Below are positions 8,994 through 64,000 of a stretch of 64,000 nt of DNA, piece after piece (within the stretch, counting starts at the first letter, position 1; each line of letters begins with the position of its first letter). Source of the DNA: a virus. The DNA lies in the IMG/VR virus record IMGVR_UViG_3300027887_000463, positions 9,371-73,370 of that record; one strand, given 5' to 3'. Below the pieces are notes generated by a model. It had not been told where the DNA came from and did no database searches. It saw only the letters and a program-made list of their open reading frames with translations. The position numbers and the translations under genes are program-made.

Positions 8994-9437
8994 ATGACTA
9001 TGAGATCATTACAAGTATATCAGCCTAGCTCAGAGACAGGCTTATTGGAGATGAAGTTTCCTTCATCAATCCCTTCTGAAGTCAGTGGGGTTCAAACTCT
9101 GTTACAGAACATTGCCTTATTCCTAAAGACCACCCCTGGATCTGATTCTTTTGATCCTGAACGTGGTACTATATTGGGCGATCAGGCTGCGATGGCTAAA
9201 TCGTTTACCAATATGGATCAGGTTCGGGTATCGGTATCCGATGCAGTTGACCGTACACAATTATACATACTTACACAGCAACAAAAGCAGCGGGAAGCTG
9301 GACAATATATAGGCCCGGATGCCACACTTACAAAGCTGGAAGTCAACAATATTTATCAAGGAGACGATCCTACTTCCATTTTTGTGGAAATTTTAGTATA
9401 TACAGAGGGTAACAAACAATACTTCCTAACGGTATAA
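8994..9437 (+). CDS. Baseplate wedge protein, gp25/GPW-like
   Basis: 147 aa; pattern LQNIALFLKTTPGSDSFDPERGTIL resembles the GPW_gp25 core [IL]xQxIxxxLxTxxGERxxxPxFG. Confidence 0.5.
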   Translation: MTMRSLQVYQPSSETGLLEMKFPSSIPSEVSGVQTLLQNIALFLKTTPGSDSFDPERGTILGDQAAMAKSFTNMDQVRVSVSDAVDRTQLYILTQQQKQREAGQYIGPDATLTKLEVNNIYQGDDPTSIFVEILVYTEGNKQYFLTV

Positions 9438-23500: not shown

Positions 23501-26500
23501 CAGCCCTAAGCGGTCATATAGGCTTTACTTATCTTCCCGGAACAAGTGCTCTGTCCGTAAGCGGTCTTATTGCTCTTGGATCCATTCCATCTTCAACAGG
23601 TATTCTGAGAATTCCAAATAACAATTCCATAGGATGGAGAAATGCTGCCAATTCAGGTGATTATACACTAGCTCTAAACAGTTCTAATTTATTTGCCTTC
23701 TCAAATAGTTTAACTGTTACGGGGGGTACTACAATTTCTACTACCCACACAGTTACTCAATCTACAATTACCGGCAATACTCCCGCATTCGATGGTTCGG
23801 CAACATGGAATAACTCCGCCGTGACTTTCCGGGGTATTGAGTTTGCAATAACAACGGGAGGTGCGGGGTATCAAACTACTTCTACACTTCTTCGGTTAAG
23901 AACAGATTCAGGCGATCGATTCTATGTCCAAGCCAATGGAGCAACACTTATTGGTTTGGCCGGGTCAGATTTAACAATTAACAATTCAACCGTCTATGCT
24001 ACTGGAGCAACCGTTTATACTGGCGATAACCTGCATGTGGGTGTATCAGATGGTCAAGCGGGGATAACTTTTCATGGAGCAAGCTCTGCAAATAAATGGG
24101 GTTTTTATAAACTTACCAGTACCTATGACTTTGTACTTTATAATTATACAAGTACTAGAAACGTCTTAAGATTTGCCGAAGCAGCAGGAAATCTAACTAC
24201 CCTATACGCCAACATGGTGATTGAGGGTACAACCGGATTCAACGCTAATGGCGAAACTGCACAGCTAAGTATTGGCGATACTAACCATTATGCTAAAGCA
24301 GTGTATGGTTCTGGACTTGCTTATGTAACCGCTACAAATGAAGACTTTACATACTTTGCTGGATCCACCTTCATATATCGTTTAGGTGGAACAGGTCTTC
24401 TCACTATTAAAGAATTAACAGCTCCTACAACAACAGCTTTGTCAGGATATGGATATCTCTATGCCAATACTGCTGATGGAAAATTGTATTGGAAAGATGA
24501 TGCTGGTACAGTATATGATCTAACTCTGGGAAGTTCGCTTCCTGCTGACAATATAACAGGATTAGGCGCTTCGAATCGAGTAGCTTATTTTACTGGAAAT
24601 TATACCATTTCTGGAAATAATAATTTCACTTACAACGGAAGTACCATTTCTGTAAGCGGTCTACTCGATTATAATTATACTACGGCTGATACTCATTGGA
24701 ATTTGGGAACACGTGCTCTTACTCTTCATGGTACGGGCGGGGCCGATGTTGGTTATACACAAATCGCAATGTATGGCGATTCAACTGGTGAGCGTCCAGG
24801 ATTCGTTATGGGCAGATTGGGGCCTGAATTTTACATTAATGTTGTTAACACAACTAACAGAGTCTTTTCAAACTCCTTCGCTGGACTAACTACGATGATC
24901 AGTGTTAGCGGCCTGGCCCTTGGTACACAGTCTGGTAATGCGGACCTAATGGTATTTGGACAAAAAGTAGGTATCAATAGAACTCCAACCGCGTATGCAT
25001 TGGAAGTAGATGGGGATATTAATCTAGAGGCGGGCCATATACTGCGCTATGCGGGAACAGATGCATTTGCTGGATATACTCCTACTTCTAGAACACTAAC
25101 GCTTACTCCTGGAGCGGGAATTGGCATTGCTCCTGGAGGAGCACAAGATCTTTCAGCTAATCGATCTTGGACAGTAACAGTATCTGGTACAATCGGGGCG
25201 ACTGCAACATGGAATGGTCAGGTTATATCTTCAACATATCTTGATGCAAATATAGCTTATAAAAATGCTAGCGCTAATATAACAGCCGATTGGATTTTTG
25301 ATGGCTCAACTTATCAGGGTATAACTGTTGGAGGGGAATCAGAAAACGGTGTTGTTAGATTTAAAACCGTAGGATCATATGGAACACTAACGTCTCTTGA
25401 CCTAGCTTCAGATTATACCTGGTATCTTCCAAATGCAAGCGGAGTTATTGCTCTCACTAAGGATCTTAACGCTTATTCTCCAGCAACTAGAACACTTACA
25501 TTAGTTCCGGGAGGAGGGGTTGGAATAACTCCTGGAGGAGCACAAGATCTTTCAGCTAATCGATCTTGGACCTTAACTGCGTCTGGAATAACTGTACTTC
25601 AAGGAGGTACGGGGGCCACAACACTAACTGGATGGGTCTATGGCAACGGCAGTAGTGCCATGACCGCCACAACAACCCCAACATTTGGGGCGGGAAGTAC
25701 TTGGAATGGTAACGCTATCTCGAGTACATATCTTGATGCTAATATAGCTTATAAGAATGCTGCCAATACATTCTCTCTGTCCCAAACAATTTCTGCAGAT
25801 CTTATTTTCTCCGGAGCCAATCGTACTATTTACTCGCTCGATGCTGCTACGGCAAGTGCGCTATATATAAGAGCAGGCTCATCATCAACTTCAGGCGGTG
25901 CTGGTGCTAATCTCTTTGTATGCGGCGGCCCAGGTAATGGGGCTGGAACTGATGGTAATGTTCTTCTTGCTTGGGATGGAGGCAGTATAGGTGCCGTAGC
26001 CATTGGACAAGGAACTGTTACAGCCACTTATTTACTGGACGTAGCTGGTTCTATCCGATCAAGTTCAAGTATTAATGCCGTAACATCATTCTTATTAAAT
26101 GGCGCTAGTCTTAATACGGGTGGAACTTTATCCAATGTTGCTTATAAAGATGCCACCAACCTCTTTACAGGAGCAATGAATGGCTTTTCTCAGACAGTAT
26201 CTGTTAGCGGACTATTAGATTATAACTATACAGCAGCAGACACTCGATGGAATCTTGGAACACGTGCTGTAGTTATAATAGGTACAGGTGGTTCAGATGT
26301 TGGTTATAATCAATTACAATTATTAGGAGGGTCAACTGGAGAGCGTCCGGGCCTTTCTATAGGACGTGCCGTAGGAGAATTAGGTATTTCTATAGCTAAT
26401 CAAACTAATAGAATCTTCTTAAACAGTGCTGCAGGTATTGCAACATTCTTTGATACTACCGGTATTCTCCTTGGTACGCAATCTGGAAATGCTGATCTGG

Positions 26501-27291
26501 CAATCGTTGGACAAAAAGTTGGTATTAATAAAACTCCAGTGACATATGCTCTTGAGGTCGATGGCGATGTAGACTTGGATAGTACTCACGTATATAGATT
26601 GGCTGGGGCGGATATTAATACGGCTGGCACATTAACTAATGTAGCGTATGAAAATCAGGCAAATACCTTTACTCAAAATAATCTATTCAATGGAACGGTT
26701 AATACCTTCTCCAGCAACGTTGTAGTCAGCGGAACATTGACAGCAAGAGCTACCAAGAATTATTTTGGTACCGCAAATTCTACTATATCCGTTAATGGTA
26801 TGTCGGTATATGGGTCTGGAAATACACGTGTAGTTGTTGAAGCTACGTCTGGTAATGCTGAAATTAATTTAGTACAAAGCACCAATACCTGGGCTATTTA
26901 TACTGGAGCAGGTTCTCTATTCTTCTACAATGGAGGAAATAGGGTTGAAATAGATACCTCTGGAAATGCTATCTTTGCCGGAGATGTTACAGCAAATGGT
27001 TCTCCATCCGATATGGTGTTGAAGATGAACATCAAGGATATGAAGCCTGCTCTGGATAAGATTCTGTCTATGCGACCCGTTGAATTTGACTGGAATCCAG
27101 AAAAGATTGAACGAAGAAAAGGACATGATGTGGGTCTTATTGCCCAAGAGGTTGAGAAGATTGCTCCAGAGTTGGTAACAACTGGGCAGGATGGTATCAA
27201 GAGAATTCATTACGATAAGGCAATACCACTTCTTATCGCAGCTATAAAAGAACTAAAGGATAGGTTAGACAATGTCGGTAGAGCTGAATAA
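17566..27291 (+). CDS. Giant modular tail fibre (3241 aa) with C-terminal peptidase-S74 intramolecular chaperone domain
   Basis: Internal ~45-aa repeats (EISAPTTPSSGFGLLYAKSD..W.KSD.G.EY.LTASG, four copies), GLIGGWxIGxxxLYS...APFRVNxxG repeats, duplicated ~130-aa modules, C-terminal SPSDMVLKMNIKDM...IAQEVEKIAPELV auto-cleaving chaperone signature. Confidence 0.8.
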   Translation: MASFLLKRTTDSIAYGTKVKNGRYVVGAYVVLYNSTTSTLIGQTQTDKYGRWYIIINTSTPDPGIYQVRFYGSGLISAEPPDGDWEFVEIVDTTAAQQGAVTYRGIWKVGTQYYGSAIYHEAVKAPDGKYYYSIADSLGVQPPNAGSWTYFSDQFASVATDLLLAQDVAVGRTITLGTALEDGGAGGILQTAGVTGLRSGTGGFYVKGSGLSELRIGTVDGANLVSGLLWDGPNNIFEIRSKNFSIDQYGNVTITGLITATSGLIGGWTIGPTSLYSNSGAGVGMSSGDWPFYAGDTNPANAEFRVSNAGALYASNATISGSISASSGVIGGWIIGPTYLYSTNVGLAPYDYPVFAGADYSSRASAPFRVNTAGSIYSISGIIGGWALDTNTLTALTNGQIRTGSSGTYITLDRNYLQSSTYISGNQGFRITSSTADAEFNNIVARGTFRASVFAIDEVNATGGTMMVTDAAEVVSGLTTPNDLSTTWYLCARKTYTNQAAMFGGPGTATGYVIRLKFADQAVNGVTDIWATRTSAAAVDGGTYWRFTVQNATVNSQNKNIYKGTAAVGYGTSTSKKIILTSDLGGSAVTPYIDMFTTGSSPWNGVTTNLRLGNLTGITDPSYGTLPSGTYGLYADNAYLKGAIVAASGLIGGWNIGSNYLYSTAGNGEGLAPLDYPFFAGAQYASRASAPFRVNTTGAIYSVSGIIGGWNLTPSQIFARSLVGSGMVSMYGFQASSDWWYGGFELKDWATWRTGNKARYHGFFGMSDNGSPPTKPEIVFYVGATTNTSPRSDAAFYIDMDGGMRFGGTQTQPGMTWDPNTNELTLSGIITATQGKIGGWNIGATSLYAGTGSSTVGLASSGGYAIYAGSATPSAAPFRVDPAGNVWATAGFIGGDDSSTGWEITTGSIATTLNGGEMFLSTVNLERAYASILGIDNYFAGLWTYYTGPIIPGSHEAYSSVNASTTSNVPVIFAGADTKYPVIGTSSIPFYVDAYGNFYTKITEYLQTAYETTSISGLTLSPTTPKNMRIESLIPRSFNESGSGGGLVYESSTGEYKSFTYTSASVTWGGFDFIYTLLNCTSDVGNIVVPVGGRIFARRSVTTINDGGAFSLSTYGPRGVYIGGTNGSSIPLLRVEQYDSDAGTDYQSRAVEIYHYSKFHGSTQPHYAQWIIGGGYGSYRGLSVYADSTGWTPTASGQDTIRGVEADTYAETTAGSNYALAGVAQGGIVAVGIYASATGGGSLGSYAGIFANAPTRFDKQLQIAEISSPTTPGTGYGYLYAKSDNLIYWKSDAGIEYDLTGASSASGITSINTLTSTAQTLVVGTAGTGFNIVSTGSTHTFNLPFAGISTSGIVSTGVQTFSGQKTFNNNVHINGNLVFDGTYTIYPQDATVANDLTIMGGVGSGSGASGGILYLMGGEGNGIGDTGIVSMAYNGTSLGGVVIGSNVLTAGYLLDVYGDIRGYNINAITALKLNGADINTAGTLSNVAYLNQANRFTARQGIFSVAPQLVVSGLTNSEIEVRSTSGGPASISFYNGTDFWQFGHATTVGYYLFQYNSSTKMSINSAGQMTINRIGTPTPLATLDVNGNAYIATGLDVPEGPVHIGAAVGAFTASGITFDKANQSQLVNVWGIDAANSTTSNPGYWGIYSVDANGNASQSYDIRATHDIAIKYDTDNTHSGTFKVWRGNTLGGGTGVFTLDATGQATLVSGLTLGTYLQLPEISAPTTPSSGFGLLYAKSDSKLWFKSDTGQEYNLTASGVTGPAGSNSYVQYNDNGIFGGTSNFEWVNASNSLLITGSMQISKATSGTIWALNSFTNGLGRVLELENSYATVAIEGGPRQYFRATLTGEGGNESFDLSAIAGIVENGDAFDTYQGALAFYYFGGEGTAVTEGARLGSDGMFNMWKNASVSGLIRIKEINAPTTPPSTYGYLYAGTDSKLYWANDLGTTYDLTASGTSGGGISSVGSPAATQVAYWASSTALSGHIGFTYLPGTSALSVSGLIALGSIPSSTGILRIPNNNSIGWRNAANSGDYTLALNSSNLFAFSNSLTVTGGTTISTTHTVTQSTITGNTPAFDGSATWNNSAVTFRGIEFAITTGGAGYQTTSTLLRLRTDSGDRFYVQANGATLIGLAGSDLTINNSTVYATGATVYTGDNLHVGVSDGQAGITFHGASSANKWGFYKLTSTYDFVLYNYTSTRNVLRFAEAAGNLTTLYANMVIEGTTGFNANGETAQLSIGDTNHYAKAVYGSGLAYVTATNEDFTYFAGSTFIYRLGGTGLLTIKELTAPTTTALSGYGYLYANTADGKLYWKDDAGTVYDLTLGSSLPADNITGLGASNRVAYFTGNYTISGNNNFTYNGSTISVSGLLDYNYTTADTHWNLGTRALTLHGTGGADVGYTQIAMYGDSTGERPGFVMGRLGPEFYINVVNTTNRVFSNSFAGLTTMISVSGLALGTQSGNADLMVFGQKVGINRTPTAYALEVDGDINLEAGHILRYAGTDAFAGYTPTSRTLTLTPGAGIGIAPGGAQDLSANRSWTVTVSGTIGATATWNGQVISSTYLDANIAYKNASANITADWIFDGSTYQGITVGGESENGVVRFKTVGSYGTLTSLDLASDYTWYLPNASGVIALTKDLNAYSPATRTLTLVPGGGVGITPGGAQDLSANRSWTLTASGITVLQGGTGATTLTGWVYGNGSSAMTATTTPTFGAGSTWNGNAISSTYLDANIAYKNAANTFSLSQTISADLIFSGANRTIYSLDAATASALYIRAGSSSTSGGAGANLFVCGGPGNGAGTDGNVLLAWDGGSIGAVAIGQGTVTATYLLDVAGSIRSSSSINAVTSFLLNGASLNTGGTLSNVAYKDATNLFTGAMNGFSQTVSVSGLLDYNYTAADTRWNLGTRAVVIIGTGGSDVGYNQLQLLGGSTGERPGLSIGRAVGELGISIANQTNRIFLNSAAGIATFFDTTGILLGTQSGNADLAIVGQKVGINKTPVTYALEVDGDVDLDSTHVYRLAGADINTAGTLTNVAYENQANTFTQNNLFNGTVNTFSSNVVVSGTLTARATKNYFGTANSTISVNGMSVYGSGNTRVVVEATSGNAEINLVQSTNTWAIYTGAGSLFFYNGGNRVEIDTSGNAIFAGDVTANGSPSDMVLKMNIKDMKPALDKILSMRPVEFDWNPEKIERRKGHDVGLIAQEVEKIAPELVTTGQDGIKRIHYDKAIPLLIAAIKELKDRLDNVGRAE
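25130..25172 (+). repeat. 43-bp exact direct repeat copy 1 (inside tail-fibre gene)
   Basis: ctcctggaggagcacaagatctttcagctaatcgatcttggac identical to 25529-25571. Confidence 0.8.
25529..25571 (+). repeat. 43-bp exact direct repeat copy 2 (inside tail-fibre gene)
   Basis: Identical to 25130-25172; flanking duplicated modules are otherwise diverged. Confidence 0.8.
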
Positions 27292-46313: not shown

Positions 46314-49300
46314 ATGGTAAATAAGCTAGATCCAGGTCTCCAGTCTAAGAACATCCAAGAAGCTATAGCAAATGTGATTAAATCACAGTTTCCTATTCAG
46401 GGTCGATATCAAACCTTGGAGCTTGTTGGGCCCCTAACAATTCAAGATGATTTAGATGATCAAGATTTTCCTGCTCAGCGTGAAGCCAAGCTCAGCGGAA
46501 GATCCTGGCAAGTTCCTGTGTACGGAACTTTCCGCCTCACTGATAATAAAACTGGAAATGTTATTGATGAAGCTAAGGATATAAAGGTCGCCAATATTCC
46601 TAAGCTTACGGATCGTTTCTCCATGCTCATCGAAGGTAATGAATATACTACGATGAATCAATTTCGTCTCAAGCCAGGAATTTATACTCGTAAAAAAGCT
46701 AACGACGAAATGGAGTCTCAATTTAATCTTGCCGTAGGTTATAACTTCAAAATGATGATGGATCCGGCAGATGGTATCTTCTATTTATATATTGGAAACC
46801 AGAAGTTCCACCTGTATACCCTGCTTCGTGCTTTTGGCGCCTCAGAAAACGAGATGATTAAATCCTGGGGCAATGCTCTGTTTGATAAAAACAAAAATGC
46901 TGGCCTCAACGAAGAGGGAAAAGAAATACCTCTGATGTGGGAGAAGTTGAAGAGACAAAAACTTCCATACGAAGAAGCTCTCAATGCTTTAAAGGATTAT
47001 TTCGATAAGACCAGAATTGATGTTGATACCACAGAAATTACCCTTGGTCGTGGAGTAGATCGTGTTACTCCAGATGCATTACTTCTTACTTCATCTAAAC
47101 TCTTACGTGTTCTACGTGGAGACGAGCCAGAAGATGAGCGCGATAGCCTAGTCTTCAAAGATCTCTATACCGTCGATGATCTTGTTCAAAAACATATCGA
47201 GAAGCGTGCTCCGAATATTCAAAAGAATCTTTTAGCCAGAACAGACCATAAGCAATCAATAAGAGAAATCATCTCACCAGATACTTATACCAAAGATATT
47301 AAGTCTTTTTTCACGCAAGGTGACTTAAGTAACCCATCCCCACAGACTAACCCCGTCGAGATGTTGGGCGAGTGGCGGAAGACTACTATCACAGGCACGG
47401 GTGGTATTCAGAGTTCACATGCCATCACCTTCAAAACTCGTGACATTCACCCAACACACTTGGGTTTTGTTGATCCTCTTAATACTCCAGAGTCGGGTAA
47501 AGTAGGTGTAACCCTTCCTCTAGCTATGCATGTTGAGAAACATGGAAAAGATATTAAGACACGATTGGTTACTCCAGAAGGAAAAGATATATTTGCCACA
47601 CCAGTAGAATTCTACAAAATGAAGGTCGGATTTCCAGATCAGCATGTTGAGGGTAAAGCTAAAGGCACCATGATTAAGGCGATGTATCGTGGGCAATCTG
47701 TGGTTCTTCCTGCCAAAGATATTGATGCATATATTCTTGACCCAACAAGTATGTTTGCTTGGACAACTAACCTTGTTCCATTCTTAGGACATAACTCGGG
47801 TAACCGCGCCCTCGTGGCCGCTAAAATGGTAACTCAAAGTGTCCCATTGAAAGCTCCAGAAACTCCTCTGGTAAAAGTTGTTGGACAAACCGGAGAAACG
47901 CTTGATTCAGTATTAGGCACGTTCTTAAAACCTAAGGTTCCTAAAGGATTTGGAACAGCCACTGTAATGAAGATCGATGATGACTACATTCATATAAGAA
48001 ATGAAAAGGGCGATCGTCATAAAGTTGGTTTATACAAAGACTTCCCGCTAAATCAAGAATCTTTTATTAATTCACGAGTTCTAGTTGATATCGGGCAGAA
48101 AGTCAAGGAGGGTGAACCTCTAGCGGATACTAACTTTTCAGACAAGAGTGGAAACTTTGCTCCTGGTGTAAATGTCAATGTTGCATATATGCCTTGGCAT
48201 GGATATAACTACGAGGACGGTATTGTTGTTACAGATTCTCTTTCCAAACGTTTTACATCAACTGTAATGTTGAAAAAGAATCTGCAGGTAGGGAAGGATA
48301 GTATTCTAGACCTAAAGAAATTTGTTTCATATTATCCTAAAGAATTGACGGTTGCCAACATTGAGAAAATGGATGATACAGGAGTAATAAAGGAGGGCGT
48401 TCGTATTGAGCCCGGTGAAACACTTATTGCTCATCTAAGCAAAATGGATCTAACGGATACACAAAAGATCCTAAAAAATATGAATCGTGTATTATCCAAT
48501 CCTTATCGTAATCAATCTCTTACCTGGGATGGAGAAAATCCAGGTGTTGTAACCCACGTTAGAAAAGTAGGAAATACTTATCAAATTCATGTGAAGGAAG
48601 AGCAACCACTCAAGGTTGGGGATAAGCTAGCCGCTCGGTATGGGGATAAAGGTATTGTTACGAAGATCATTTCAGATTCCGAAGCACCCCATACCAAAGA
48701 TGGAAATCGTATAGATATGATGGTTAATATTCATGGTGTAGTAGGCCGTATGAATATGGGGCAGCTACTTGAAGCAGCTGCTGGTCGAATCGCTATGAAG
48801 ACAGGCAAGCCTTTCTTAGTAAAGAACTTTGCTGACCGAGATTATCTATCTGATATTATGGCTGAAATGAAGAAGTTAAAACTTGAACCTAATGAGACGC
48901 TTCTGGATGGAGCAACGGGTAAGCCATTTGAAAAACCAGTCTTCTGGGGCAATAAGCATTATCTAAAGCTGATGCATGTAGTTGATCATAAGTACAAAGC
49001 TCGTGGAATCCCCGGATCTTATGATGCAAATGAGCAACCCGTCCATGGCGAGGTCGGAGGACAATCAGTTGATCCTCTACAGATGTATTCGTATCTTGCG
49101 CACGGTGCACGAGAGAATCTATATGAATTTACCGCGGTGAAAGGTCAGAAGAATGACGAGTATTGGCGTGCGCTACAGCTCGGTCTTCCGCCTCCTCCAC
49201 CCCAAAGAAACTTTGTCTTTGATAAGTTCATTAATTATATCAAGGCAGCTGGGGTTAATGTTGAGAAGAATGGAACTCGGTTTAAACTATTCCCAGCCAC

Positions 49301-52300
49301 CTCAGATGATATGTTAAAATGGTCTGCTGGCGAGCTTACAGATCCTGGTCATATGTTACGTGGAAAAGATCTTAGTGAAATTAAGGGTGGTTTATACGAC
49401 CCGAAATTAACGGGAGGGCTGCGAGGTACTAACTGGACCCACTTCAAACTAGAAGAGCCGATCCCCAATCCATTATATGAAAATGCAGTTAAGTCAATCT
49501 TAGGGCTAAATACACCTGCATTTGAACGTATCATCAATGAAGATGATAAAGATTCAAAGATGAAAGGTAACCAGCGTATAGCCAAAATGCTTTCGGATAT
49601 TGATATAGATGAAGAATTAGCCAAAGCTAAGGACGCCCTAAAGACAGCTGGACCTACACAAGTTAACACTTTGAACAAAAGGATTCGTTTCCTATCAGTG
49701 TTGAAGGAGCGTAATTTACGTCCTGAAAAAGCATATATGATGGAATTGATACCAGTACTTCCTCCAATTTATAGGCCAGTTTATCCATTACCTTCCGGAG
49801 ATACACAGAATTCTCCAATTAATTATCACTATCGTGACGTAGCTGTGTTGAATCAGTCTATAAAAGATATAAAAGCACAAGGTCATTTGATAGATGAGTT
49901 GGAACAGAACAGAAAGAATAGATCTGACTTATACAAATCTGTAAAAGCTTTAATGGGATTAGCAGAGCCCATCACCTTTACTACTCGTCAATATGAAGGA
50001 CTTCTTGGAACTCTTGCCGGAGATTCTCCAAAGCAAGGATTCATTCAGAACAAGTCCTGGTCGAAACGTCAAGATTTATCGGCTCGGTCCACGATCACAG
50101 TGGAACCTTCGCTCGGTATCGATCAAGTTGGATTGCCTGACGTCATGTTGAAAGATCTCTTTAAACCGTTTGTTATGAGAGAAATTGTACGCCAAGGTTA
50201 CAAACCAACTGAAGCCTTAGAACAGATAAAAACCTGGACTCCTGTAGCGGAACAAGCTCTGAATAATGCTATTAAACAGCGGCCCGTTATGCTTAACCGG
50301 GCACCATCTCTTCATAAGCATTCAGTACAGGCATTCTGGCCACAGAGATTTGAAGGACAAAGTATTCGTGTAAGTCCATTGACAGCAAAAGGATTTAACT
50401 TTGACTTTGATGGCGACACCATGTCAGTACACGTTCCTGTGTCTGAAAAAGCTGTGGAAGAAGCTAAAGGCATGCTGCCAACAAAGAATCTCTACAAAGC
50501 CGGCGATCGTCAGCATATGATTAATATTGAACAGGATTACCAGCTTGGTCTTTATTATTTATCACAGCTCGGAGCAGATACTGGAAAACGATTTTCTTCT
50601 ATTAGCAAGGCAATAAAGGAAGTTAAGGATCGTAATACTACCTTTACTTTAGATGGTAAAAAGATGAGTATCGGACAATGGGAAATTAACGACCCACTTC
50701 CTGATGCTTTGAAAGATTATACGCGACTCATGGATTCAAAAGCCGTCAAAGGTTTAGTAGATACATTATTTATGAAATATCCCGGTTATCTTGGAACTGT
50801 TATTGATACCTGGAAGGAGCTCGGAAGAAACTACGCAGTTCAAAGAGGTAGTACCGTGTCCATTACAGATATGGTCGTTGATCGCAGTTACAGGGATAAG
50901 ATCTTAAAAGATTATGAAGCTAAAATTAAGCCTGGTATGGATAAATATGAAGTCTCAAAGATCTATGGTGATGCTAAAGCTGAGATGGAAGAGGCTCAAG
51001 AAAAGCTTCTAAAGGGGAAGAACAACTTTTATGATATGTTACAAGCTGGAAGTACTTCGAAGAAGGGTCAGGTTACACAGATCCTTTCCATGCCGGGCAT
51101 TATGATGGACGTTCACGGAGAGCCAATTCCACATCCTGTAAAGAAATCTTGGTCAGAAGGTCTTGATACATTTGATTATTGGAACCAGTCTTATGGTGCC
51201 CGTAAAGGTGTTGTGGATCGTTCCGTTAATACTCAAGATTCTGGAGCTTTAAATAAAGAACTTCTATTTACTACTAAGAGTTTATTAGTTATTGAAGAAG
51301 ATTGTGGAACTCCAGAGGGTATTATATTAGATACTGATTCCAAAGAAGTTATGGATCGATTTCTTTCAAGTGATGTTCCGGGCGTTGGTAAGAGAAATGA
51401 TCTTGTTACAAATGAGCGTATGTTAAAAGCGAAAACAAAGAAAATAGAAAAACTTCCAGTACGATCATCTCTCACCTGTGAAGCTGAGGGCGGAGTTTGT
51501 CAGAAATGTTATGGCCTTATGGCAAACGGACAACTTGCTCGTATAGGAGAAAATGTAGGAGTTATTGACTCTGAGGCTGTTACTGAACGTTCTACTCAAT
51601 TACAAATGCAGACTTTCCATACTGGGGGTGTTGCAGGCGGAGGGGCAGCAGTAACATTAGGGTTCCCTAGATTGGAAGAGCTCTTGTATGTTCCACAGAA
51701 GATTCGAGACGCAGCGGTTCTTTCGCGAGAAGATGGTATTGTTACTCAAATTACAGAGAATCCAGCAGGAGGAAAAAATCTCTTCATTGGTCGTAGTGAG
51801 TACTATATTCCAAGAGAGAGACGTCTAGACGTTTCCGTCGGCTCTCGAGTAAAACGTGGTGATCGTTTAACAGATGGTTCCATTAAGCCACAGGAATTGT
51901 CGGAATTAAAAGAGCATCTTACAGCCCAGCAATATATAGCAGATGAAATCAATAAGATTTATGAGAATAAATTTGCAAGGAAAACTTTTGAAACCGTTTT
52001 ACGTGGTGTAGCAAATAATGCCGAAATAACAAATATTCCTGAAGAAGTAGAAGCAAGTGCTAATTTTATGCGGGGCGATACAGTACCGATAACTCGTGTA
52101 AAGAAATTAAATAGAGAGCTACTTGCTGAAGGAAAACCACAGATAGAATATAAGCCATTCTTTAAATCTATCTCTGTACTCCCATTACATAGTGACGATT
52201 GGCTAAGTAGATTAACAACAAACAGATTAAAACAAACTATCCAAGAGGCAGCTTCTATGGGTATGGAGAGCGATGTTAAGGGCACAGACCCGATGTCTGC

Positions 52301-52361
52301 TTATCTATATGGACTTGATTTTGGAAAAGATGTTGATCCAACAAAGAAGAAATTCTATTAA
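46314..52361 (+). CDS. Fused beta-beta' multisubunit RNA polymerase catalytic subunit (RpoB-RpoC-like single polypeptide, about 2015 aa)
   Basis: RpoB-like segments (FLGHNSGNRALVAAKMVTQSVPL; YMPWHGYNYEDGIVV; AARYGDKGIVTKI...RMNMGQLLE; GGQSVDPLQMYSYLAHGA) followed by an RpoC-like catalytic region (NRAPSLHKHSVQAFWP...FNFDFDGDTMSVHVPVS = NADFDGD motif). ATG 46314 with RBS preferred over the upstream TTG used in the ORF track. Confidence 0.8.
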   Translation: MVNKLDPGLQSKNIQEAIANVIKSQFPIQGRYQTLELVGPLTIQDDLDDQDFPAQREAKLSGRSWQVPVYGTFRLTDNKTGNVIDEAKDIKVANIPKLTDRFSMLIEGNEYTTMNQFRLKPGIYTRKKANDEMESQFNLAVGYNFKMMMDPADGIFYLYIGNQKFHLYTLLRAFGASENEMIKSWGNALFDKNKNAGLNEEGKEIPLMWEKLKRQKLPYEEALNALKDYFDKTRIDVDTTEITLGRGVDRVTPDALLLTSSKLLRVLRGDEPEDERDSLVFKDLYTVDDLVQKHIEKRAPNIQKNLLARTDHKQSIREIISPDTYTKDIKSFFTQGDLSNPSPQTNPVEMLGEWRKTTITGTGGIQSSHAITFKTRDIHPTHLGFVDPLNTPESGKVGVTLPLAMHVEKHGKDIKTRLVTPEGKDIFATPVEFYKMKVGFPDQHVEGKAKGTMIKAMYRGQSVVLPAKDIDAYILDPTSMFAWTTNLVPFLGHNSGNRALVAAKMVTQSVPLKAPETPLVKVVGQTGETLDSVLGTFLKPKVPKGFGTATVMKIDDDYIHIRNEKGDRHKVGLYKDFPLNQESFINSRVLVDIGQKVKEGEPLADTNFSDKSGNFAPGVNVNVAYMPWHGYNYEDGIVVTDSLSKRFTSTVMLKKNLQVGKDSILDLKKFVSYYPKELTVANIEKMDDTGVIKEGVRIEPGETLIAHLSKMDLTDTQKILKNMNRVLSNPYRNQSLTWDGENPGVVTHVRKVGNTYQIHVKEEQPLKVGDKLAARYGDKGIVTKIISDSEAPHTKDGNRIDMMVNIHGVVGRMNMGQLLEAAAGRIAMKTGKPFLVKNFADRDYLSDIMAEMKKLKLEPNETLLDGATGKPFEKPVFWGNKHYLKLMHVVDHKYKARGIPGSYDANEQPVHGEVGGQSVDPLQMYSYLAHGARENLYEFTAVKGQKNDEYWRALQLGLPPPPPQRNFVFDKFINYIKAAGVNVEKNGTRFKLFPATSDDMLKWSAGELTDPGHMLRGKDLSEIKGGLYDPKLTGGLRGTNWTHFKLEEPIPNPLYENAVKSILGLNTPAFERIINEDDKDSKMKGNQRIAKMLSDIDIDEELAKAKDALKTAGPTQVNTLNKRIRFLSVLKERNLRPEKAYMMELIPVLPPIYRPVYPLPSGDTQNSPINYHYRDVAVLNQSIKDIKAQGHLIDELEQNRKNRSDLYKSVKALMGLAEPITFTTRQYEGLLGTLAGDSPKQGFIQNKSWSKRQDLSARSTITVEPSLGIDQVGLPDVMLKDLFKPFVMREIVRQGYKPTEALEQIKTWTPVAEQALNNAIKQRPVMLNRAPSLHKHSVQAFWPQRFEGQSIRVSPLTAKGFNFDFDGDTMSVHVPVSEKAVEEAKGMLPTKNLYKAGDRQHMINIEQDYQLGLYYLSQLGADTGKRFSSISKAIKEVKDRNTTFTLDGKKMSIGQWEINDPLPDALKDYTRLMDSKAVKGLVDTLFMKYPGYLGTVIDTWKELGRNYAVQRGSTVSITDMVVDRSYRDKILKDYEAKIKPGMDKYEVSKIYGDAKAEMEEAQEKLLKGKNNFYDMLQAGSTSKKGQVTQILSMPGIMMDVHGEPIPHPVKKSWSEGLDTFDYWNQSYGARKGVVDRSVNTQDSGALNKELLFTTKSLLVIEEDCGTPEGIILDTDSKEVMDRFLSSDVPGVGKRNDLVTNERMLKAKTKKIEKLPVRSSLTCEAEGGVCQKCYGLMANGQLARIGENVGVIDSEAVTERSTQLQMQTFHTGGVAGGGAAVTLGFPRLEELLYVPQKIRDAAVLSREDGIVTQITENPAGGKNLFIGRSEYYIPRERRLDVSVGSRVKRGDRLTDGSIKPQELSELKEHLTAQQYIADEINKIYENKFARKTFETVLRGVANNAEITNIPEEVEASANFMRGDTVPITRVKKLNRELLAEGKPQIEYKPFFKSISVLPLHSDDWLSRLTTNRLKQTIQEAASMGMESDVKGTDPMSAYLYGLDFGKDVDPTKKKFY

Positions 52362-58044: not shown

Positions 58045-58066
58045 AAGGGCACGGTTAGGTGCCCTT
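58045..58066 (-). terminator. Hairpin plus T-run overlapping the stop codon of the RNA-repair gene (possible partial terminator/attenuator)
   Basis: Minus strand AAGGGCAC-CUAACC-GUGCCCUU-UUAUUU; stop codon lies in the loop. Confidence 0.35.
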
Positions 58067-60223
58067 CTCCTTGTAATACATATTTCTCAATGTGATGATA
58101 TCTCGTGATAGCTCTTCTTCAGTTCTGGTTTTGAGCCAGGCATAGAAGTAGTTGGCTTCGGGCGTAACCAATCCCGAGAGATTCACCTGTCGTCTTGCAC
58201 GAACAGCATCCTTCACTACACGCATATGTTTCCAGAAGTTGTAGTAAGGGAGCTTAAGCTTCATCATAAAGCCATTGGAATCCTCAAAGACAAATCCCTC
58301 GATATCCGAGGTAGTTGCCGTTTCACATTCCTTATAGAATTGAAGAAGCTCTTCCTTCGAGTTCAGAGTCTTATACAATTGCTTCGAGCGATGTGGCATA
58401 TTCAGTGAATGGGCAAATGCCAGCATCTCCTGATATGGCAACTTCTCGTAGTCAAGTGTTCTCCGCACTGCATCCAGAAGAACTAATCCCTGTCTGTCGG
58501 GATATGCAATGATATGAGGATCGGTATCTTGATCAACTACTTCGAAGACAAGAGTGACGTTGTGTCCCTTGAGAATTGCTTTGAGATAATCCGGATCTAC
58601 GTTTGTGGTTAATGCCCACACACGCTTGAAGATGTCCGGATAGATTCCCTCAACAGAACTCTTGGAAAGGAAGAGAACCTGATCGGAAGCAGTATCATAA
58701 CCGACCATACCCAGGAATCCATTATACTTCTCGTACACATGGACAGGATATTGAAGGTTAACCGTTTCAATCTTAGTCTCATCTCTTTCGTTCACATTGA
58801 AAAACTTATTATATGAACGAGCCACAATTTCATTTGTCACCGTATTGACGAACAGTCCTCTGGCTTTTACTGTCATTCCATCCCAAATCTTCTTGTAGAA
58901 CGCACCACGGTTGAAGTTAAACGAGGAGATATCTCCGAACTTGCGCTCATTGATGTGTCTGCTCTTCCTTAAATCCTCCACGAACGAGGAAGGACCGAGA
59001 GTGGTTTCCACTTTTATATTTTTTGGACGAAATACAGTATTCGGAATCTCCCATGTCTTGATCTCCAAAGAATCACGATAGAGAGTAACAGCCCGAAGAT
59101 TTCCTCCGAACTCAATGTTACCCTGCAGATTATAATACTTTGGGTTGATCTTTATAGGCGATTCCGTAACGTTTCTATGGCCAGATATCTGGATGGCATC
59201 CGGCGGAGAATTCTTCTCCCACGATTCAGCAACCTCCAGCATATCTTCATAGCGTCCCACACCTTTGATAAATTGTTCGGTAGCAATTGTGATGAGGTCT
59301 TCAGGGAGCTTAGAGATGCCTCCGTGGGTTACCAGAACGAGCTGATTTCCCAAACGGAAATATGCAACCTGAGCAAACTTCCTACACAACTGCCGTACGG
59401 ATCCCTTATCCAAAGCTGCGGACTCGAGTTCTCTTTTGGTTTGGAAAAGGAATTCATTGGAACGAATCTTTTCCTCTTCCTGGTTGGCCCAGTATCTCAA
59501 CCACCGCTCGTGATTCCCCTCCAGAAGAAGTATATTAGGCTTTTCATAATTCTCGATAAGCCAACGTACCACCTCGGTATTCTGAATCCCACGATCGATA
59601 AAATCACCAACAAAGATGTAATAGTGATTTTCGTGATAGCCAACTGCATCGAACCACACTTTCAGCGGTTCATAACATCCGTGAATATCTCCGATAATGT
59701 GCACCTGTTCATATTCAAATGCAAGCGGTGCATAATCAAAGACGCCCATATAGTCAGCCGGCTTGACAACCTGGACATAACCAGGAACCGGTTGACTCTT
59801 TAGTCGAGCTTCGATATTATCGAGCACAAATTCCGGAACCCACTTATATTCCGGACGGGTCTTATTCTGAAGTTTGCATTGTTCCAGAGGAACATCGGAG
59901 AAGTCGATACAATAGATACGGTATCGATACTCTCCTGCCAACTTCTTATACTTGGCAAAATCGCTGGCCTTGGAGTGAGTAGCATCAATGAACACCAGTT
60001 CTCCGCGTTCCATGCGAGTTTCCAACATTTCGAATAGAAGTCCCCAAACCTTTCGGTCATTCTCCGGGCTAATCGCGTACACTCCCTTAGGAGTAAGTAC
60101 CGGCGCCTGGAGTTGGAGACGAATGTCATCAGCGCACAATGTGTAAGGGCGCAGGCCTTCCTGTTCGAGCCAGGTAGACTTTCCGCATCCGACATTACCG
60201 CGGAGAAGATAGAGGTGTCTCAT
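58055..60223 (-). CDS. Trifunctional RNA-repair enzyme: polynucleotide kinase, metallophosphoesterase-type phosphatase and ligase-like nucleotidyltransferase (bacterial Pnkp-like), 722 aa
   Basis: N-terminal P-loop GNVGCGKST; central calcineurin-like motifs HIIGDIHGC, VGDFIDRG, GNHE; C-terminal nucleotidyltransferase motif I EKYNGFLGM (KxNG). Confidence 0.7.
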   Translation of the reverse strand: MRHLYLLRGNVGCGKSTWLEQEGLRPYTLCADDIRLQLQAPVLTPKGVYAISPENDRKVWGLLFEMLETRMERGELVFIDATHSKASDFAKYKKLAGEYRYRIYCIDFSDVPLEQCKLQNKTRPEYKWVPEFVLDNIEARLKSQPVPGYVQVVKPADYMGVFDYAPLAFEYEQVHIIGDIHGCYEPLKVWFDAVGYHENHYYIFVGDFIDRGIQNTEVVRWLIENYEKPNILLLEGNHERWLRYWANQEEEKIRSNEFLFQTKRELESAALDKGSVRQLCRKFAQVAYFRLGNQLVLVTHGGISKLPEDLITIATEQFIKGVGRYEDMLEVAESWEKNSPPDAIQISGHRNVTESPIKINPKYYNLQGNIEFGGNLRAVTLYRDSLEIKTWEIPNTVFRPKNIKVETTLGPSSFVEDLRKSRHINERKFGDISSFNFNRGAFYKKIWDGMTVKARGLFVNTVTNEIVARSYNKFFNVNERDETKIETVNLQYPVHVYEKYNGFLGMVGYDTASDQVLFLSKSSVEGIYPDIFKRVWALTTNVDPDYLKAILKGHNVTLVFEVVDQDTDPHIIAYPDRQGLVLLDAVRRTLDYEKLPYQEMLAFAHSLNMPHRSKQLYKTLNSKEELLQFYKECETATTSDIEGFVFEDSNGFMMKLKLPYYNFWKHMRVVKDAVRARRQVNLSGLVTPEANYFYAWLKTRTEEELSRDIITLRNMYYKEKGT

Positions 60224-60690
60224 TATGACTTCCTTAACATAGTTAAGATTTGATTTCCTTCTCGTTTTGGAGTATCCATTGCGAAATGGGTTAGTTCTGC
60301 TTTTATTTTTTCGAGTAATTCAAATCCCTGTTCGGGACGAGTTATTTCTCGACCATGAAAGCGAACTATCAAACGAATAGGATGTCCCTTTTCGAGTAGT
60401 TCATTGATATGCCGAGCTTTTGTTTGAAGATCATGGTCGGCAATATTAATATTGAATCGAAACTCTTTTAGATCTGGCGCAGGTTTCGTCTTATGCGCTT
60501 TTTTCTGTTGATACTGAAACTTCTCAAAGTCTTGAATCTTGCAGACACCGCGCCCAACTTCTACAAGATCCAAACTCCTTGTATGTGCTAATTTTATAGC
60601 CTCGGTCGTAGCTAGAGTTCCGAGATTATTTCCGTTCTCGTCAATAACAAGAACGGGAGTGTCCGTGATCTGATTATTTACACGGTTCAA
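60223..60690 (-). CDS. infC: Translation initiation factor IF-3 homologue with non-AUG (TTG) start; stop overlaps the ATG of the RNA-repair gene (TAATG)
   Basis: VLVIDENGNNLGTLATTEAIKLAHTRSLDLVEV...CKIQDFEKFQYQQKKA...LIVRFHGREI matches IF3 N- and C-domain signatures; no in-frame ATG between the upstream TAG and the conserved N-terminus; GGAGA nine nt before TTG. Confidence 0.7.
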   Translation of the reverse strand: MNRVNNQITDTPVLVIDENGNNLGTLATTEAIKLAHTRSLDLVEVGRGVCKIQDFEKFQYQQKKAHKTKPAPDLKEFRFNINIADHDLQTKARHINELLEKGHPIRLIVRFHGREITRPEQGFELLEKIKAELTHFAMDTPKREGNQILTMLRKS

Positions 60691-61051
60691 GTTCGATCTT
60701 CTCCAATGATTGGATATTTGTGTATGCGTAAAAGGTACCTAGTTTGGTACCCGTATCTTTGAAACATAGTTTAATCTTTACACTATGCGCAGATTCATAG
60801 AACGGCATTGTATACCCCAGTAACTCTAGCTGAGTTCCCGCAGGTAGAAGCAGTTGTCCGTTTCTAGGTATTCCGTATTGACCTCTGTGTACATTGGGAT
60901 CTGGAGTGAACATATTTCCAGCAAAAGTACTCACTCGCTTCTGTGCGTAACTTGTGGAGAGTTCTATTGAGACCAACTGGTCTTTTATTACAATAAACTC
61001 TCGCTTACCCTCAAAAAAATTGAATCTCATTTTAAAGACCAATCTAACCAT
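60674..61051 (-). CDS. Hypothetical protein (125 aa)
   Basis: ORF overlapping the infC-like start. Confidence 0.4.
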   Translation of the reverse strand: MVRLVFKMRFNFFEGKREFIVIKDQLVSIELSTSYAQKRVSTFAGNMFTPDPNVHRGQYGIPRNGQLLLPAGTQLELLGYTMPFYESAHSVKIKLCFKDTGTKLGTFYAYTNIQSLEKIELEPCK

Positions 61052-62025
61052 TTCGGATTACGTACATACCAGTTGACTGTTTTGCTGAGACATTCTTCAA
61101 ATTCCATTGGAATCTTCCAGCCCATATTTTCCATCTTGGTTCCGTCCAGAGCATAGCGTAAGTCATGTCCTGGCCTCGATGAATGAAAGTCAACTAGTTC
61201 GTATTTTAGTTCTTTCCCAAGGATGACGGCAATATCATGTGCCATATCCAAGTTACTAACCTCTTTTTCTCCTACAATATTAAACTTATCACCATTGTCT
61301 GTATGAGAGTTCAGAAGAAAGTGAATAGCTGATGCAACATTTCTTGCATGGATATAAAATCGTGAGCCAGATTTTGTTCGTTCTGGATTAGAGTGTATTT
61401 CAATAGTTCGTCCAGCAAGAATATCAATAATACATTTGGGTATGAATTTTTCTGGGTGTTGTCGTTCTCCAAAAACATTCATTGTGTGGGTGATGATGAT
61501 GGGAAGTTTGTAGGTATTTTCATACGCTATACAAAGCTCTTCTCCGCCCGCTTTAGTAGCTGCATAAGGATTTTTTGCATTGTAGCGATCCCATTCCTTA
61601 AAAGCTATACCTTCGGGTGCCGGTCCAAAAACCTCATCTGTAGAAAAGTAAATCATTTTCTCTAGATGCCGTAGATTTCGAGCAAACTCTAAAATCTCTA
61701 AGGTCCCCACTACGTTTGAATAAACAAAGCGTCGTGGTTCGGTTATTGAGTTATCTACGTGTGTCTCTGCACCCAGATGTAGAATGTAATTTACATCGCC
61801 GATTTCATTGAGTAGCCCCTCATTTATGGGCTTCGTAAAATCCGCAGTAAAGGTAGTTACACGCTTATCATCATACACGTTAATATCGCGTAACCGATTG
61901 AATCCATGTGAAGCATATGTTAATTTATCGAATACGACTATGCTCCAGTCAGTATTTTTCAGAAAATGTTCTACGATGTGGTGCCCGATGAAACCAGCAC
62001 CACCCGTAATTAAGATTATTGGCAT
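61027..62025 (-). CDS. rmlB: dTDP-glucose 4,6-dehydratase (RmlB-like short-chain dehydrogenase)
   Basis: ILITGGAGFIGHHIV, DKLTYASH (RmlB KLTYAGN), YAATKAGGE (YxxxK), full-length collinearity with RmlB. Confidence 0.8.
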   Translation of the reverse strand: MPIILITGGAGFIGHHIVEHFLKNTDWSIVVFDKLTYASHGFNRLRDINVYDDKRVTTFTADFTKPINEGLLNEIGDVNYILHLGAETHVDNSITEPRRFVYSNVVGTLEILEFARNLRHLEKMIYFSTDEVFGPAPEGIAFKEWDRYNAKNPYAATKAGGEELCIAYENTYKLPIIITHTMNVFGERQHPEKFIPKCIIDILAGRTIEIHSNPERTKSGSRFYIHARNVASAIHFLLNSHTDNGDKFNIVGEKEVSNLDMAHDIAVILGKELKYELVDFHSSRPGHDLRYALDGTKMENMGWKIPMEFEECLSKTVNWYVRNPKWLDWSLK

Positions 62026-62369
62026 AGATTAAGAAGAAGGCCCTGTTCGTCTTCATCCGCATTGCGGCATATAGCGCCTTCAAAAACCCTCATGTTAAAA
62101 GTTTTGGGACGAACATTTAATTCCGGTCTCGGCCCATTGTAATCGAATCGTTCAAGGAGAGCTGCGAGATTTATACGAATCTGCATACGCACTGCCAGAC
62201 GTTTCGTAGCACGAGCTTCTCCCTCTAAATATATACGGTATTTACTCAACGTCTTGTGGCGTTGCATTTCACTCATAAGCCTCACTTCATCCGCAATATG
62301 GTTAAAATAAGGCTGTAAAATTTCATTGACCACCTTGACTGATGGTTCAATGGCAGGCAACTTTGTCAT
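62016..62369 (-). CDS. Hypothetical protein (117 aa)
   Basis: ORF. Confidence 0.4.
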   Translation of the reverse strand: MTKLPAIEPSVKVVNEILQPYFNHIADEVRLMSEMQRHKTLSKYRIYLEGEARATKRLAVRMQIRINLAALLERFDYNGPRPELNVRPKTFNMRVFEGAICRNADEDEQGLLLNLCQ

Positions 62370-62404: not shown

Positions 62405-62437
62405 AGTAAAAAAAATGAGGGGGAGTTTATCTCCCCC
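62405..62437 (-). terminator. Rho-independent terminator after the SPFH-like gene
   Basis: Minus strand GGGGGAG-AUAAA-CUCCCCC followed by TCATTTTTTTT. Confidence 0.6.
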
Positions 62438-62443
62438 ACATTA

Positions 62444-63640
62444 CTACTTCTTTGGAATTGAAAGGTCGAGTGCCAAATCCTTGGCGGTCTTGACTGAGAG
62501 CATATCAATCAAAGCCGTTGCGGAATTATAGCTACCCTTACCAGCACCGCTTCCCTCAAAAATCACATCAGGAACCCACTTCTGTTTGCCAATGTTTTCG
62601 GCAAAAGCAGTCATGACCGCCTGATAGGTTTCCAACTTCTGGGTCAAGGCACCATCAGCAATAATGATCTTACGCTTGTATTCAGCATCAGCTTCAGCTT
62701 CGAGAATTCTCTTCTGCTTATACTGACCGGCTGTTTTGGTTTCAAGCGTAGCAACTTCCAGCTTCTGCTGGGCTTCTGTTACCATCTTGGCCTTGATTAC
62801 TTCCTGTTCCCATTTGGCTTTTGCGGCTTCTGCACGACCATTCTGTTCCGCGGTAATCGCTTGCTGTTCAGCTTCGCGAGCCTTTGCGGAGGCAGTTTGA
62901 ATCTGCATAATTGCCTGTTGCTGAGCCTGGATCTGCTTCTCAACGTTTTCGTCGTAGCCAACGTTATTGATCGAAAGGTTGAAAGTCTTTACTCCAAAAA
63001 CTGCAAGAGGAGATTCATCCTGCCGTTCAAAGGTGCCATCCTTACCTTTCAATACGTCAACAACCGTGAGAGTACGTGGAGAACCAGATAGAGGATCCTT
63101 ATCTTGAACCTGATATGAACGGGTCTTATAAACCCCATTCTCGATCTGGTCTTCGATAAAACGGATTAACTCATTCCGGCGTTCAGCATAAGACTCTTTT
63201 GACGACATAAGAGGGCCAGTCATATAGACTGATTTCTCTACGATCGTTCGTACGAGTTGCTGCTCAATGGCCTGCTGGCTTCCATACTTGGTATGAAGCA
63301 TAACCAAATGCTGTTCATCCACAGGCATTTCCCACGCAATTGATCCAGAGACACTGCCATGACCACCATCATTGAATCGAACTGAGATGGCCTGATTCAT
63401 TTCTGTTCCCTGATCATCTTTTTCTGAGAACCAGAATTGGGATCGCTTTTGATACTTGGTGACTTTGCCGAAACCCTGCCACTTGAAATTTCCAGGAGTC
63501 ATGTGCCAGGTGAGATCTCCCGAAAGAGACTGAACCACCATGATCTCGTCGGCGTCGTTACTTTCGAAAATGTTGAAACTTGCAAAGATCAGAACGATCG
63601 CAAGAATGGCAACGGCTCCGAGGCCGAAGATCTTGCGACC
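62444..63640 (-). CDS. SPFH/band-7 flotillin-like membrane protein, N-terminally truncated at the compositional junction
   Basis: TM helix [19 protein letters not shown], then an SPFH-like domain and a long Ala/Glu/Gln/Lys coiled coil; no start codon before the TM (the ORF runs open into antisense high-GC DNA); codon usage more GC-rich than the other phage genes. Confidence 0.5.
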
Positions 63641-63644
63641 CGCG

Positions 63645-64000
63645 TCGAGCTCGGCGGGCGGCGGTTCCTGCGCCGTTCCGGCCGCGGCGCGTTCGTCACA
63701 CGCCTTGCCGACGGCCGGCCGCTCGGCGTGATCAACGCGATGGGCCGGGTCTTCATGCCGCCGGTCGACAATCCGTTCGAGGCGGTCGCCGCCGCCGTCG
63801 ATCGCCTGTCGCGCGAATCCCGCGTCATCGTCGTCGACATGCACGCGGAAGCCACGGCCGAGAAGATCGCGATGGGCTGGCACCTCGATGGCCGCGCGGC
63901 CGCGCTGGTCGGCACGCACACCCACGTGCAGACCGCCGACGCCCGCATCCTTCCAGGCGGCACGGCGTACATCACCGATGTCGGCATGACCGGGCCGCAC
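63645..64000 (+). CDS. ymdB: Internal fragment of a YmdB-family metallophosphoesterase (2',3'-cyclic-nucleotide phosphodiesterase) from a high-GC bacterium; partial at both ends
   Basis: [33 protein letters not shown]...[57 protein letters not shown] collinear with B. subtilis YmdB residues ~115-215; GC ~68%. Confidence 0.65.

Follow-up and report, generated by a model that had tools for sequence, protein, structure and literature searches.

Why does a clade of phage IF3 genes begin with TTG? A probable role for an overlapping reading frame and a weak canonical start codon

A 64,000-nucleotide stretch of viral DNA (IMG/VR record IMGVR_UViG_3300027887_000463, positions 9,371 to 73,370, hereafter the window) carries a gene for translation initiation factor IF3 with TTG as its start codon, and the question raised by this locus is why this codon is used. 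In a preliminary description of the sequence the TTG was taken as the kind of start codon by which cellular infC genes regulate themselves. Our analysis leads to another answer, which we consider reasonably probable: the TTG is an ordinary weak start codon of the canonical class that is locked in place by an overlapping gene, and it is probably also tolerated or even favoured because little IF3 is needed. The features on which this answer depends are the following.

60223..60690, minus strand: IF3 (infC-like) coding sequence, 155 residues, TTG start and TAA stop, identified from the open reading frame (ORF) list, Pfam and PHROG
60688..60690, minus strand: start codon TTG, read directly; at the homologous site 10 of 14 lineages have TTG and 4 of 14 have ATG
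60700..60704, minus strand: Shine-Dalgarno (SD)-like GGAGA, 9 nucleotides 5' of the TTG, its position kept in relatives
60739..60741, minus strand: in-frame stop TAG, the 5' bound of the IF3 frame, read directly
60674..61030, minus strand: phage ORF of 118 residues, a pipeline call mapped to the window, whose last 17 nucleotides overlap the IF3 start
60674..60690, minus strand: dual-coding overlap of 17 nucleotides, both frames read directly

The gene at 60223..60690 is predicted to encode a complete and compact two-domain IF3 of the bacterial type. Residues 4-68 match Pfam IF3_N (PF05198) over profile positions 1-69 of 70 with an E value of 8.3e-19, and residues 74-153 match IF3_C (PF00707) over profile positions 3-84 of 86 with an E value of 6.7e-21. 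The PHROG match is to phrog_9787, translation initiation factor (E 3.7e-29), and residues 2-152 are collinear with the solved bacterial IF3 chains 5me0, 5lmn and 8jsg (E 1.8e-23 to 3.9e-18). By these matches and alignments the infC-like phage gene of the preliminary description is a real IF3. The lysine-rich linker between its two domains is QQKKAHKTKPAPDLKE; this linker and a loop in the N-domain are each about 4 residues shorter than in the solved bacterial IF3s, and the protein is without the short basic N-terminal tail that is found in most cellular IF3s.

The start codon had also been read correctly. Direct reading confirmed that there is no ATG or GTG between the TAG and the conserved IF3 N-terminus; the 16 codons that separate the TAG from the TTG include no ATG, GTG or TTG, and the sole near-cognate codon among them is an ATA at 60717-60715, which has no SD. 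The TTG at 60690 stands behind GGAGA, whose pairing to the anti-SD is -6.4 kcal/mol. Since IF3_N is aligned from residue 4, any start further downstream would truncate the N-domain. The homologous TTG of five relatives (L007, L009, L017, L019 and L022) has an in-frame stop just one codon 5' of it, and therefore no upstream start is possible there. The preliminary description had allowed for a sequencing error behind the upstream stop; four independent Joint Genome Institute (JGI) assemblies (L001-L004) are identical across the region, and the stop is not an error. Recoding of TAG was rejected as well, as 4 out of 30 called genes end in TAG and the standard code leaves every ORF unbroken. When the start codons of the 31 pipeline-called genes in the window were counted there were 29 ATG, 1 GTG and 1 TTG, the last being that of IF3, and among 49 neighbour genes on the contigs of relatives there were 44 ATG, 3 TTG and 2 GTG. 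About half of the window genes have no recognisable SD.

When 5.8 billion proteins were searched for homologues, the window IF3 was found to belong to a family of about 17 proteins of 154-160 residues that are 46-99% identical to it, and no cellular IF3 was above 47% identity. DNA of 14 distinct but phylogenetically related lineages was compared at the start codon. At the homologous position TTG is found in 10 of them (the window, L005, L007, L009, L011, L013, L015, L017, L019 and L022), and the remaining 4 (L008, L010, L012 and L021) have ATG at this position or within one codon of it; ATT, ATC, ATA or CTG starts were found in none of the 14. Parsimony on a neighbour-joining tree makes TTG the ancestral state, with three changes from T to A. 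Because 10 of 14 lineages have TTG and TTG is rare among other genes, the TTG of the phage IF3 is a feature of the clade and not a one-off. The part of the preliminary description that spoke of a retained start therefore stands in that a non-AUG start has been maintained across a diverged phage clade; its retention as an infC regulatory device does not.

What the preliminary description had missed is the overlap with the 118-residue upstream gene, a constraint that is able to explain the TTG by itself. In the upstream frame the region reads ATC GAA CTT GAA CCG TGT AAA TAA (I-E-L-E-P-C-K-stop) and in the IF3 frame it reads TTG AAC CGT GTA AAT AA.. (M-N-R-V-N), and the first T of the TTG is the middle base of the upstream Leu codon CTT. 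Changing the IF3 start to ATG would turn this Leu into His, changing it to GTG would turn it into Arg, and changing it to ATT would create a premature stop in the upstream gene. The hydrophobic codon (CTT for Leu or ATT for Ile) belongs to a C-terminal Φ-E-P motif of the 118-residue protein, the last 24 residues of which are nearly invariant among clade members. As judged from the two frames, TTG is shown to be the sole start codon that is compatible with the conserved upstream residue. A homologue of the 118-residue protein with the same 17-nucleotide overlap is present in L005, L007, L009, L010, L011, L013, L019 and L022, and the residue at this place is hydrophobic or aromatic in 10 of 10 overlapping lineages (L, I, V or Y). 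The overlapping lineages with ATG came to it in two ways, L008 by a change of the Leu to Tyr and L010 by a start that moved one codon, where the residue is Val. TTG is the start codon in 8 of the 10 overlapping lineages compared to 2 of the 4 non-overlapping ones; the two latter are L015, with a gap of 23 nucleotides, and L017, with a gap of 17 nucleotides, and both have lost the 118-residue partner gene.

The same tendency is seen in genes that have nothing to do with IF3. In the window and at loci L013-L022, with the IF3 genes left out, starts embedded by at least 8 nucleotides in an upstream gene were non-ATG in 4 of 10 cases compared to 1 of 53 otherwise (Fisher p=0.0016). One example of an embedded non-ATG start is the GTG gene at 38829-39713 (minus strand), which begins in an overlap of 11 nucleotides. 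The 118-residue protein itself had no Pfam or PHROG match and only 4 sequence relatives. Its AlphaFold model has a predicted local distance difference test score (pLDDT) of 81, and no significant fold match to it was found in the PDB or among viral predicted structures, the best being an SH3-like fold at E 0.38 and an uncharacterised protein of phage Atu_ph07 at E 0.017 with a root-mean-square deviation of 14 Å.

To what extent does the phage start resemble that of cellular infC? For a baseline we used 80 bacterial infC loci, 78 of which have an in-frame upstream stop within the DNA obtained. In 22 of these 78 loci there is no canonical start between the stop and the conserved domain. A strong SD is present in 70 loci, and the codon that it backs is ATT, ATC or ATA in 63, TTG in 3, CTG in 2, ATG in 1 and GTG in 1. 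The TTG codons behind a strong AGGAGG are those of L032, L034 and L053, from Treponema and other spirochaetes, and are rare exceptions. It has been shown that IF3 accepts AUG, GUG and UUG as canonical and that infC uses AUU or AUC (PMC5499595), and the start of Streptomyces infC is ATC (PMC5472188). In a ten-fold excess of IF3 a UUG mRNA was barely affected whereas an AUU mRNA was reduced by more than 60% (PMC5499595). The TTG start of the phage IF3 lies outside the AUU/AUC/AUA/CUG class against which IF3 discriminates. Because UUG is in the canonical class that IF3 accepts, and cellular infC uses AUU, AUC and AUA, the phage TTG is not the self-regulation device of cellular infC. The statement in the preliminary description that TTG is characteristic of infC autoregulation is thus contradicted by the 63 of 70 cellular loci with ATT, ATC or ATA, by the mere 3 with TTG, and by the canonical standing of UUG for IF3.

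Other phage IF3 genes begin with ATG, as in 121Q and three huge-phage genomes, or with GTG, as in Phosso and Atu_ph07. Two further records stand apart. L030 (MT835497.1, 'UNVERIFIED Bacteriophage sp.') has an IF3 gene with ATC behind GGAG and no canonical start, which is the classic cellular arrangement, and the IF3 ORF of L029 (OR844993.1, 'UNVERIFIED_ORG Staphylococcus phage') begins in what we take to be the manner of staphylococcal IF3. Both records look more like bacterial than phage DNA.

If the start is neither misread nor an infC device, how would it work and what keeps it? Translation would begin at the UUG at 60690, served by the GGAG(A) SD 9-10 nucleotides upstream. The GGAGA doubles as part of the Leu-Glu-Lys codons of the upstream 118-residue gene, and the SD and the start both lie within the last ~31 nucleotides of that gene. 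This placement suggests that IF3 is probably made from a polycistronic mRNA and is partly coupled to translation of the upstream gene. Two ordinary forces best account for the persistence of the codon. The first, shown by the reading of both frames, is the dual-coding lock, in which the first T of the TTG is fixed by the conserved hydrophobic codon of the upstream frame. The second would be a tolerance of, and probably a selection for, a low rate of initiation, small amounts of IF3 being all that is needed. There is a hint of such selection because two lineages without the overlap keep TTG and because the SDs of the ATG lineages are weaker. The mean SD pairing is -7.3 kcal/mol in TTG lineages and -4.3 kcal/mol in ATG lineages (Mann-Whitney p=0.009, ignoring phylogeny), as if the lineages had compensated so as to hold initiation at a set rate, and the spacing between SD and start is 9-10 nucleotides in 8 of the 10 TTG lineages. 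In E. coli reporters AUG and GUG are 6-8 times stronger than UUG (PMC3592434), and compared to AUG the initiation at UUG has been put at 10-100% and that at AUU-class codons at 1-2% (bioRxiv 10.1101/063800).

Several points weigh against this explanation. How weak UUG is varies with the host and the context: in an optimised E. coli in-vitro system UUG was equal to AUG (PMC5499595) and in Streptomyces UUG exceeds ATG (PMC5472188). The case for coupling of IF3 to the 118-residue gene is wholly geometric, and the C-terminal motif of the 118-residue protein could itself be conserved because it carries the initiation signals of IF3. At the first base of the TTG there were three changes, much as at two-fold synonymous sites of this gene (2-6 changes; the average at four-fold sites is 6.5), a count that does not show purifying selection on the TTG. 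The statistics come from 14 related lineages and from pipeline gene calls, and such calls may contain too many non-ATG starts where genes overlap.

Among the alternatives the one that survives best, doubtful though it is, takes the TTG as a pure by-product, frozen by its embedding and without a role in expression, so that TTG in the lineages without overlap would be a leftover that has not yet mutated. The dual-coding analysis of the overlap agrees with it, and so do the 8 of 10 overlapping compared to 2 of 4 non-overlapping lineages with TTG, the association of non-ATG starts with long overlaps in unrelated genes (4 of 10 compared to 1 of 53), and a rate of change between T and A at the start that is no slower than at two-fold synonymous sites. 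However, L015 and L017 are deep branches, at 63-66% identity to the window protein and with saturated synonymous sites, and they have kept TTG even though starts that are not embedded are non-ATG in only 1 of 53 genes. The weaker SDs of the ATG lineages, which resemble compensation, also count against a mere by-product, and the lock is not absolute since the upstream residue is Tyr in L008 and Val in L010.

A further reading, which we regard as rather unlikely, is that a selection beyond the overlap keeps the UUG together with the long spacer and thereby holds IF3 low or makes it responsive to total IF3. If this were true, a control of dose analogous to that of infC would have arisen convergently in these phages, with a weak canonical codon in place of AUU. 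Quite unlikely is true feedback, in which the non-AUG start would make translation of the phage IF3 sensitive to host and phage IF3 together, as in cellular infC. In its favour are the frequency of non-AUG starts in the clade (10 of 14 lineages compared to about 4% of other genes), the TTG kept in the two lineages that are free of the overlap constraint, and the long SD spacing of 9-10 nucleotides in 8 of the 10 TTG lineages; the kinetic checkpoints that depend on IF3 are sensitive to how strong an initiation region is as a whole, and this also counts for feedback. On the other side, UUG is one of the three codons that IF3 accepts, 63 of the 70 SD-backed starts of cellular infC are ATT, ATC or ATA, the phage clade never has a codon of the AUU class, its three switches to ATG would abolish such feedback, and ATG or GTG is the start codon of the other phage IF3 genes. 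A conserved RNA structure at the start was not found either: there were no consensus pairs around it in 11 relatives, and the single-sequence fold was not significant (z = -1.8). A mis-assigned start, with translation from the ATA at 60717 or from a downstream near-cognate codon, is highly improbable. In its favour are the frame of the ATA (60717-60715), the use of ATA as a start by many cellular infC genes, and the short, basic extension that cellular IF3s usually have at the N-terminus. Against it, the ATA has no SD in front of it, the five relatives with a stop one codon 5' of the TTG exclude an upstream start, the ATG of four relatives is placed at the homologous position or no more than one codon away, and with position 1 of IF3_N at residue 4 a downstream start would truncate the domain.

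We return to the origin of the gene, which the preliminary description had regarded as a possible recent capture with its regulatory logic intact. The phage IF3 gene has a G+C content (GC) of 0.393 and a GC at third codon positions (GC3) of 0.321, and the other phage genes have 0.420±0.027 and 0.370±0.065, so that it is within one standard deviation of both. The initiation signals of the gene are made from codons of a phage-specific upstream gene. Recent capture is contradicted by the depth of the clade, by the phage-like GC and GC3 and by an identity to cellular IF3s of at most 47%, and it is contradicted further by the lack of thrS, rpmI and rplT nearby and by the position of the SD and start inside a phage gene. 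By these features the phage IF3 is a native member of a deep, phage-specific clade and not a recent capture.

The immediate neighbourhood of the IF3 gene is a tightly packed block of genes on the minus strand, to which the following features also belong or adjoin.

58055..60223, minus strand: fusion of kinase, phosphoesterase and RNA ligase, 722 residues, with Pfam domains AAA_33, Metallophos and RNA_lig_T4_1
61027-62025, minus strand: NAD-dependent epimerase/dehydratase, a block member upstream of the 118-residue ORF
62016-62369, minus strand: ORF of 117 residues, a block member from the ORF list
62419..62437, minus strand: GC-rich hairpin with a run of T behind it, resembling a terminator, 5' of the block, a consensus match only

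The hairpin at 62419..62437 is a probable boundary of the transcription unit. A promoter scan gave fewer sigma-70-like sites than were found in shuffled sequence. None of thrS, rpmI and rplT was found near the phage IF3 gene, the neighbours of which are the epimerase, the 118-residue ORF and the RNA-repair fusion. The stop codon of IF3 overlaps the ATG of this fusion gene (TAATG), and the 722-residue product, directly 3' of IF3, combines a P-loop kinase, a calcineurin-like phosphoesterase and an RNA ligase of the T4 Rnl1 type. The presence of an RNA or tRNA repair enzyme beside a translation factor suggests a module that protects translation.

The source of the window is, from its gene content, a tailed phage, as there are matches within the 64 kb to a baseplate wedge protein (phrog_6, E 7e-24) and, in the same window as the IF3 gene, to a portal protein (phrog_16240, E 6e-10). 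Sibling contigs reach 132,641 bp, and one IF3 relative is carried on the IMG/VR contig UViG_3300032516_000011 of 103,723 bp. When the 5-kb neighbourhood of IF3 was compared with deposited phages by megablast there was no match at the DNA level. Elsewhere in the window an ORF of 3241 residues with a Peptidase_S74 domain (17566-27291, plus strand) is probably a giant tail fibre or spike, and an ORF of 2015 residues (46314-52361, plus strand) has both Rpb2 (beta-like) and Rpb1 (beta'-like) domains and is a fused RNA polymerase of the multisubunit type. A reverse transcriptase gene of the RVT_1 family (294 residues, 40479-41363, minus strand) is possibly part of a diversity-generating retroelement; a direct repeat of at least 40 nucleotides that could be its template and variable region was searched for between 36000 and 43000 and none was found. 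A bpMoxR-type AAA ATPase (44226-45380) is paired with a VWA-domain protein (42663-44222), both on the minus strand. At the end of the window, from 63600 to 64000, the GC leaps from about 45% to about 72%. The start of a Band_7 gene in a sibling contig maps to 63727, where the window has GCC and the ORF continues into the high-GC part. It would seem that the assembly has made a chimeric join here or that the end of the window is a foreign fragment.

How the phage gene stands beside known systems may now be considered. Like the phage gene, cellular infC (AUU in E. coli, AUC in Streptomyces) has a two-domain IF3 as its product, a non-AUG start that is led by an SD and lies near or inside the 3' end of an upstream gene, and an IF3 synthesis that is plausibly held down. 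Unlike the phage gene, it needs AUU, AUC or AUA, which IF3 rejects, whereas the UUG of the phage is accepted (PMC5499595); it is part of a thrS-infC-rpmI-rplT operon, which the phage clade does not have, and the phage clade switches freely to AUG. Phage-encoded IF3 has already been documented, and its presumed role is to aid the translation of the host or to divert it (PMC7162821, PMC7824862). The IF3s of jumbo and huge phages (AUZ94813.1 of Agrobacterium phage Atu_ph07, gp47 of Escherichia phage 121Q, that of Sinorhizobium phage Phosso and those of the LR7565xx huge phages; phrog_9787) resemble the present one in being IF3s of the bacterial type on large tailed phages. The window IF3 is, however, at most 35% identical to any deposited phage IF3. 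Its clade is separate from these, compact (154-160 residues) and without the N-terminal tail, its nearer members have a deletion of 4 residues in the N-domain loop, and it starts mostly with TTG where the other phage IF3s start with ATG or GTG. The window IF3 is thus a divergent new member of the phage-encoded IF3s.

Weak starts that limit a protein are known from E. coli cyaA (UUG) and pcnB (AUU), and they share with the phage IF3 a rare start codon and, in the case of the phage presumably, a protein of low dose; for cyaA the output from UUG, GUG and AUG was 1:2:6 (cited in PMC5499595). What differs is that the phage codon is also locked by an overlapping frame. Coupled overlapping gene pairs of phages and of bacterial operons, like the pair described here, have the SD and start of the downstream gene inside the 3' coding end of the upstream one. 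The common overlaps that were tested experimentally are of 1 or 4 nucleotides (TAATG or ATGA) (PMC3592434), whereas the overlap here is 17 nucleotides and the coupling is putative.

Such a locus is easily over-read, for a second frame that overlaps a start codon is enough to freeze it, and UUG does not belong to the class that IF3 polices. If the residual signal, that is, the TTG kept where there is no overlap and the weaker SDs of the ATG lineages, is not real, then the TTG is an ordinary detail of annotation. A limit on the dose of IF3 in the phage would fit with the idea that an excess of IF3 harms translation. Parts of the translation apparatus are found in large phages, and the dosing of such factors has received little study. 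Here a rare UUG start has long persisted in a clade of phage IF3 genes, and if the residual signal is real it would mean that these phages limit the dose of their own IF3.

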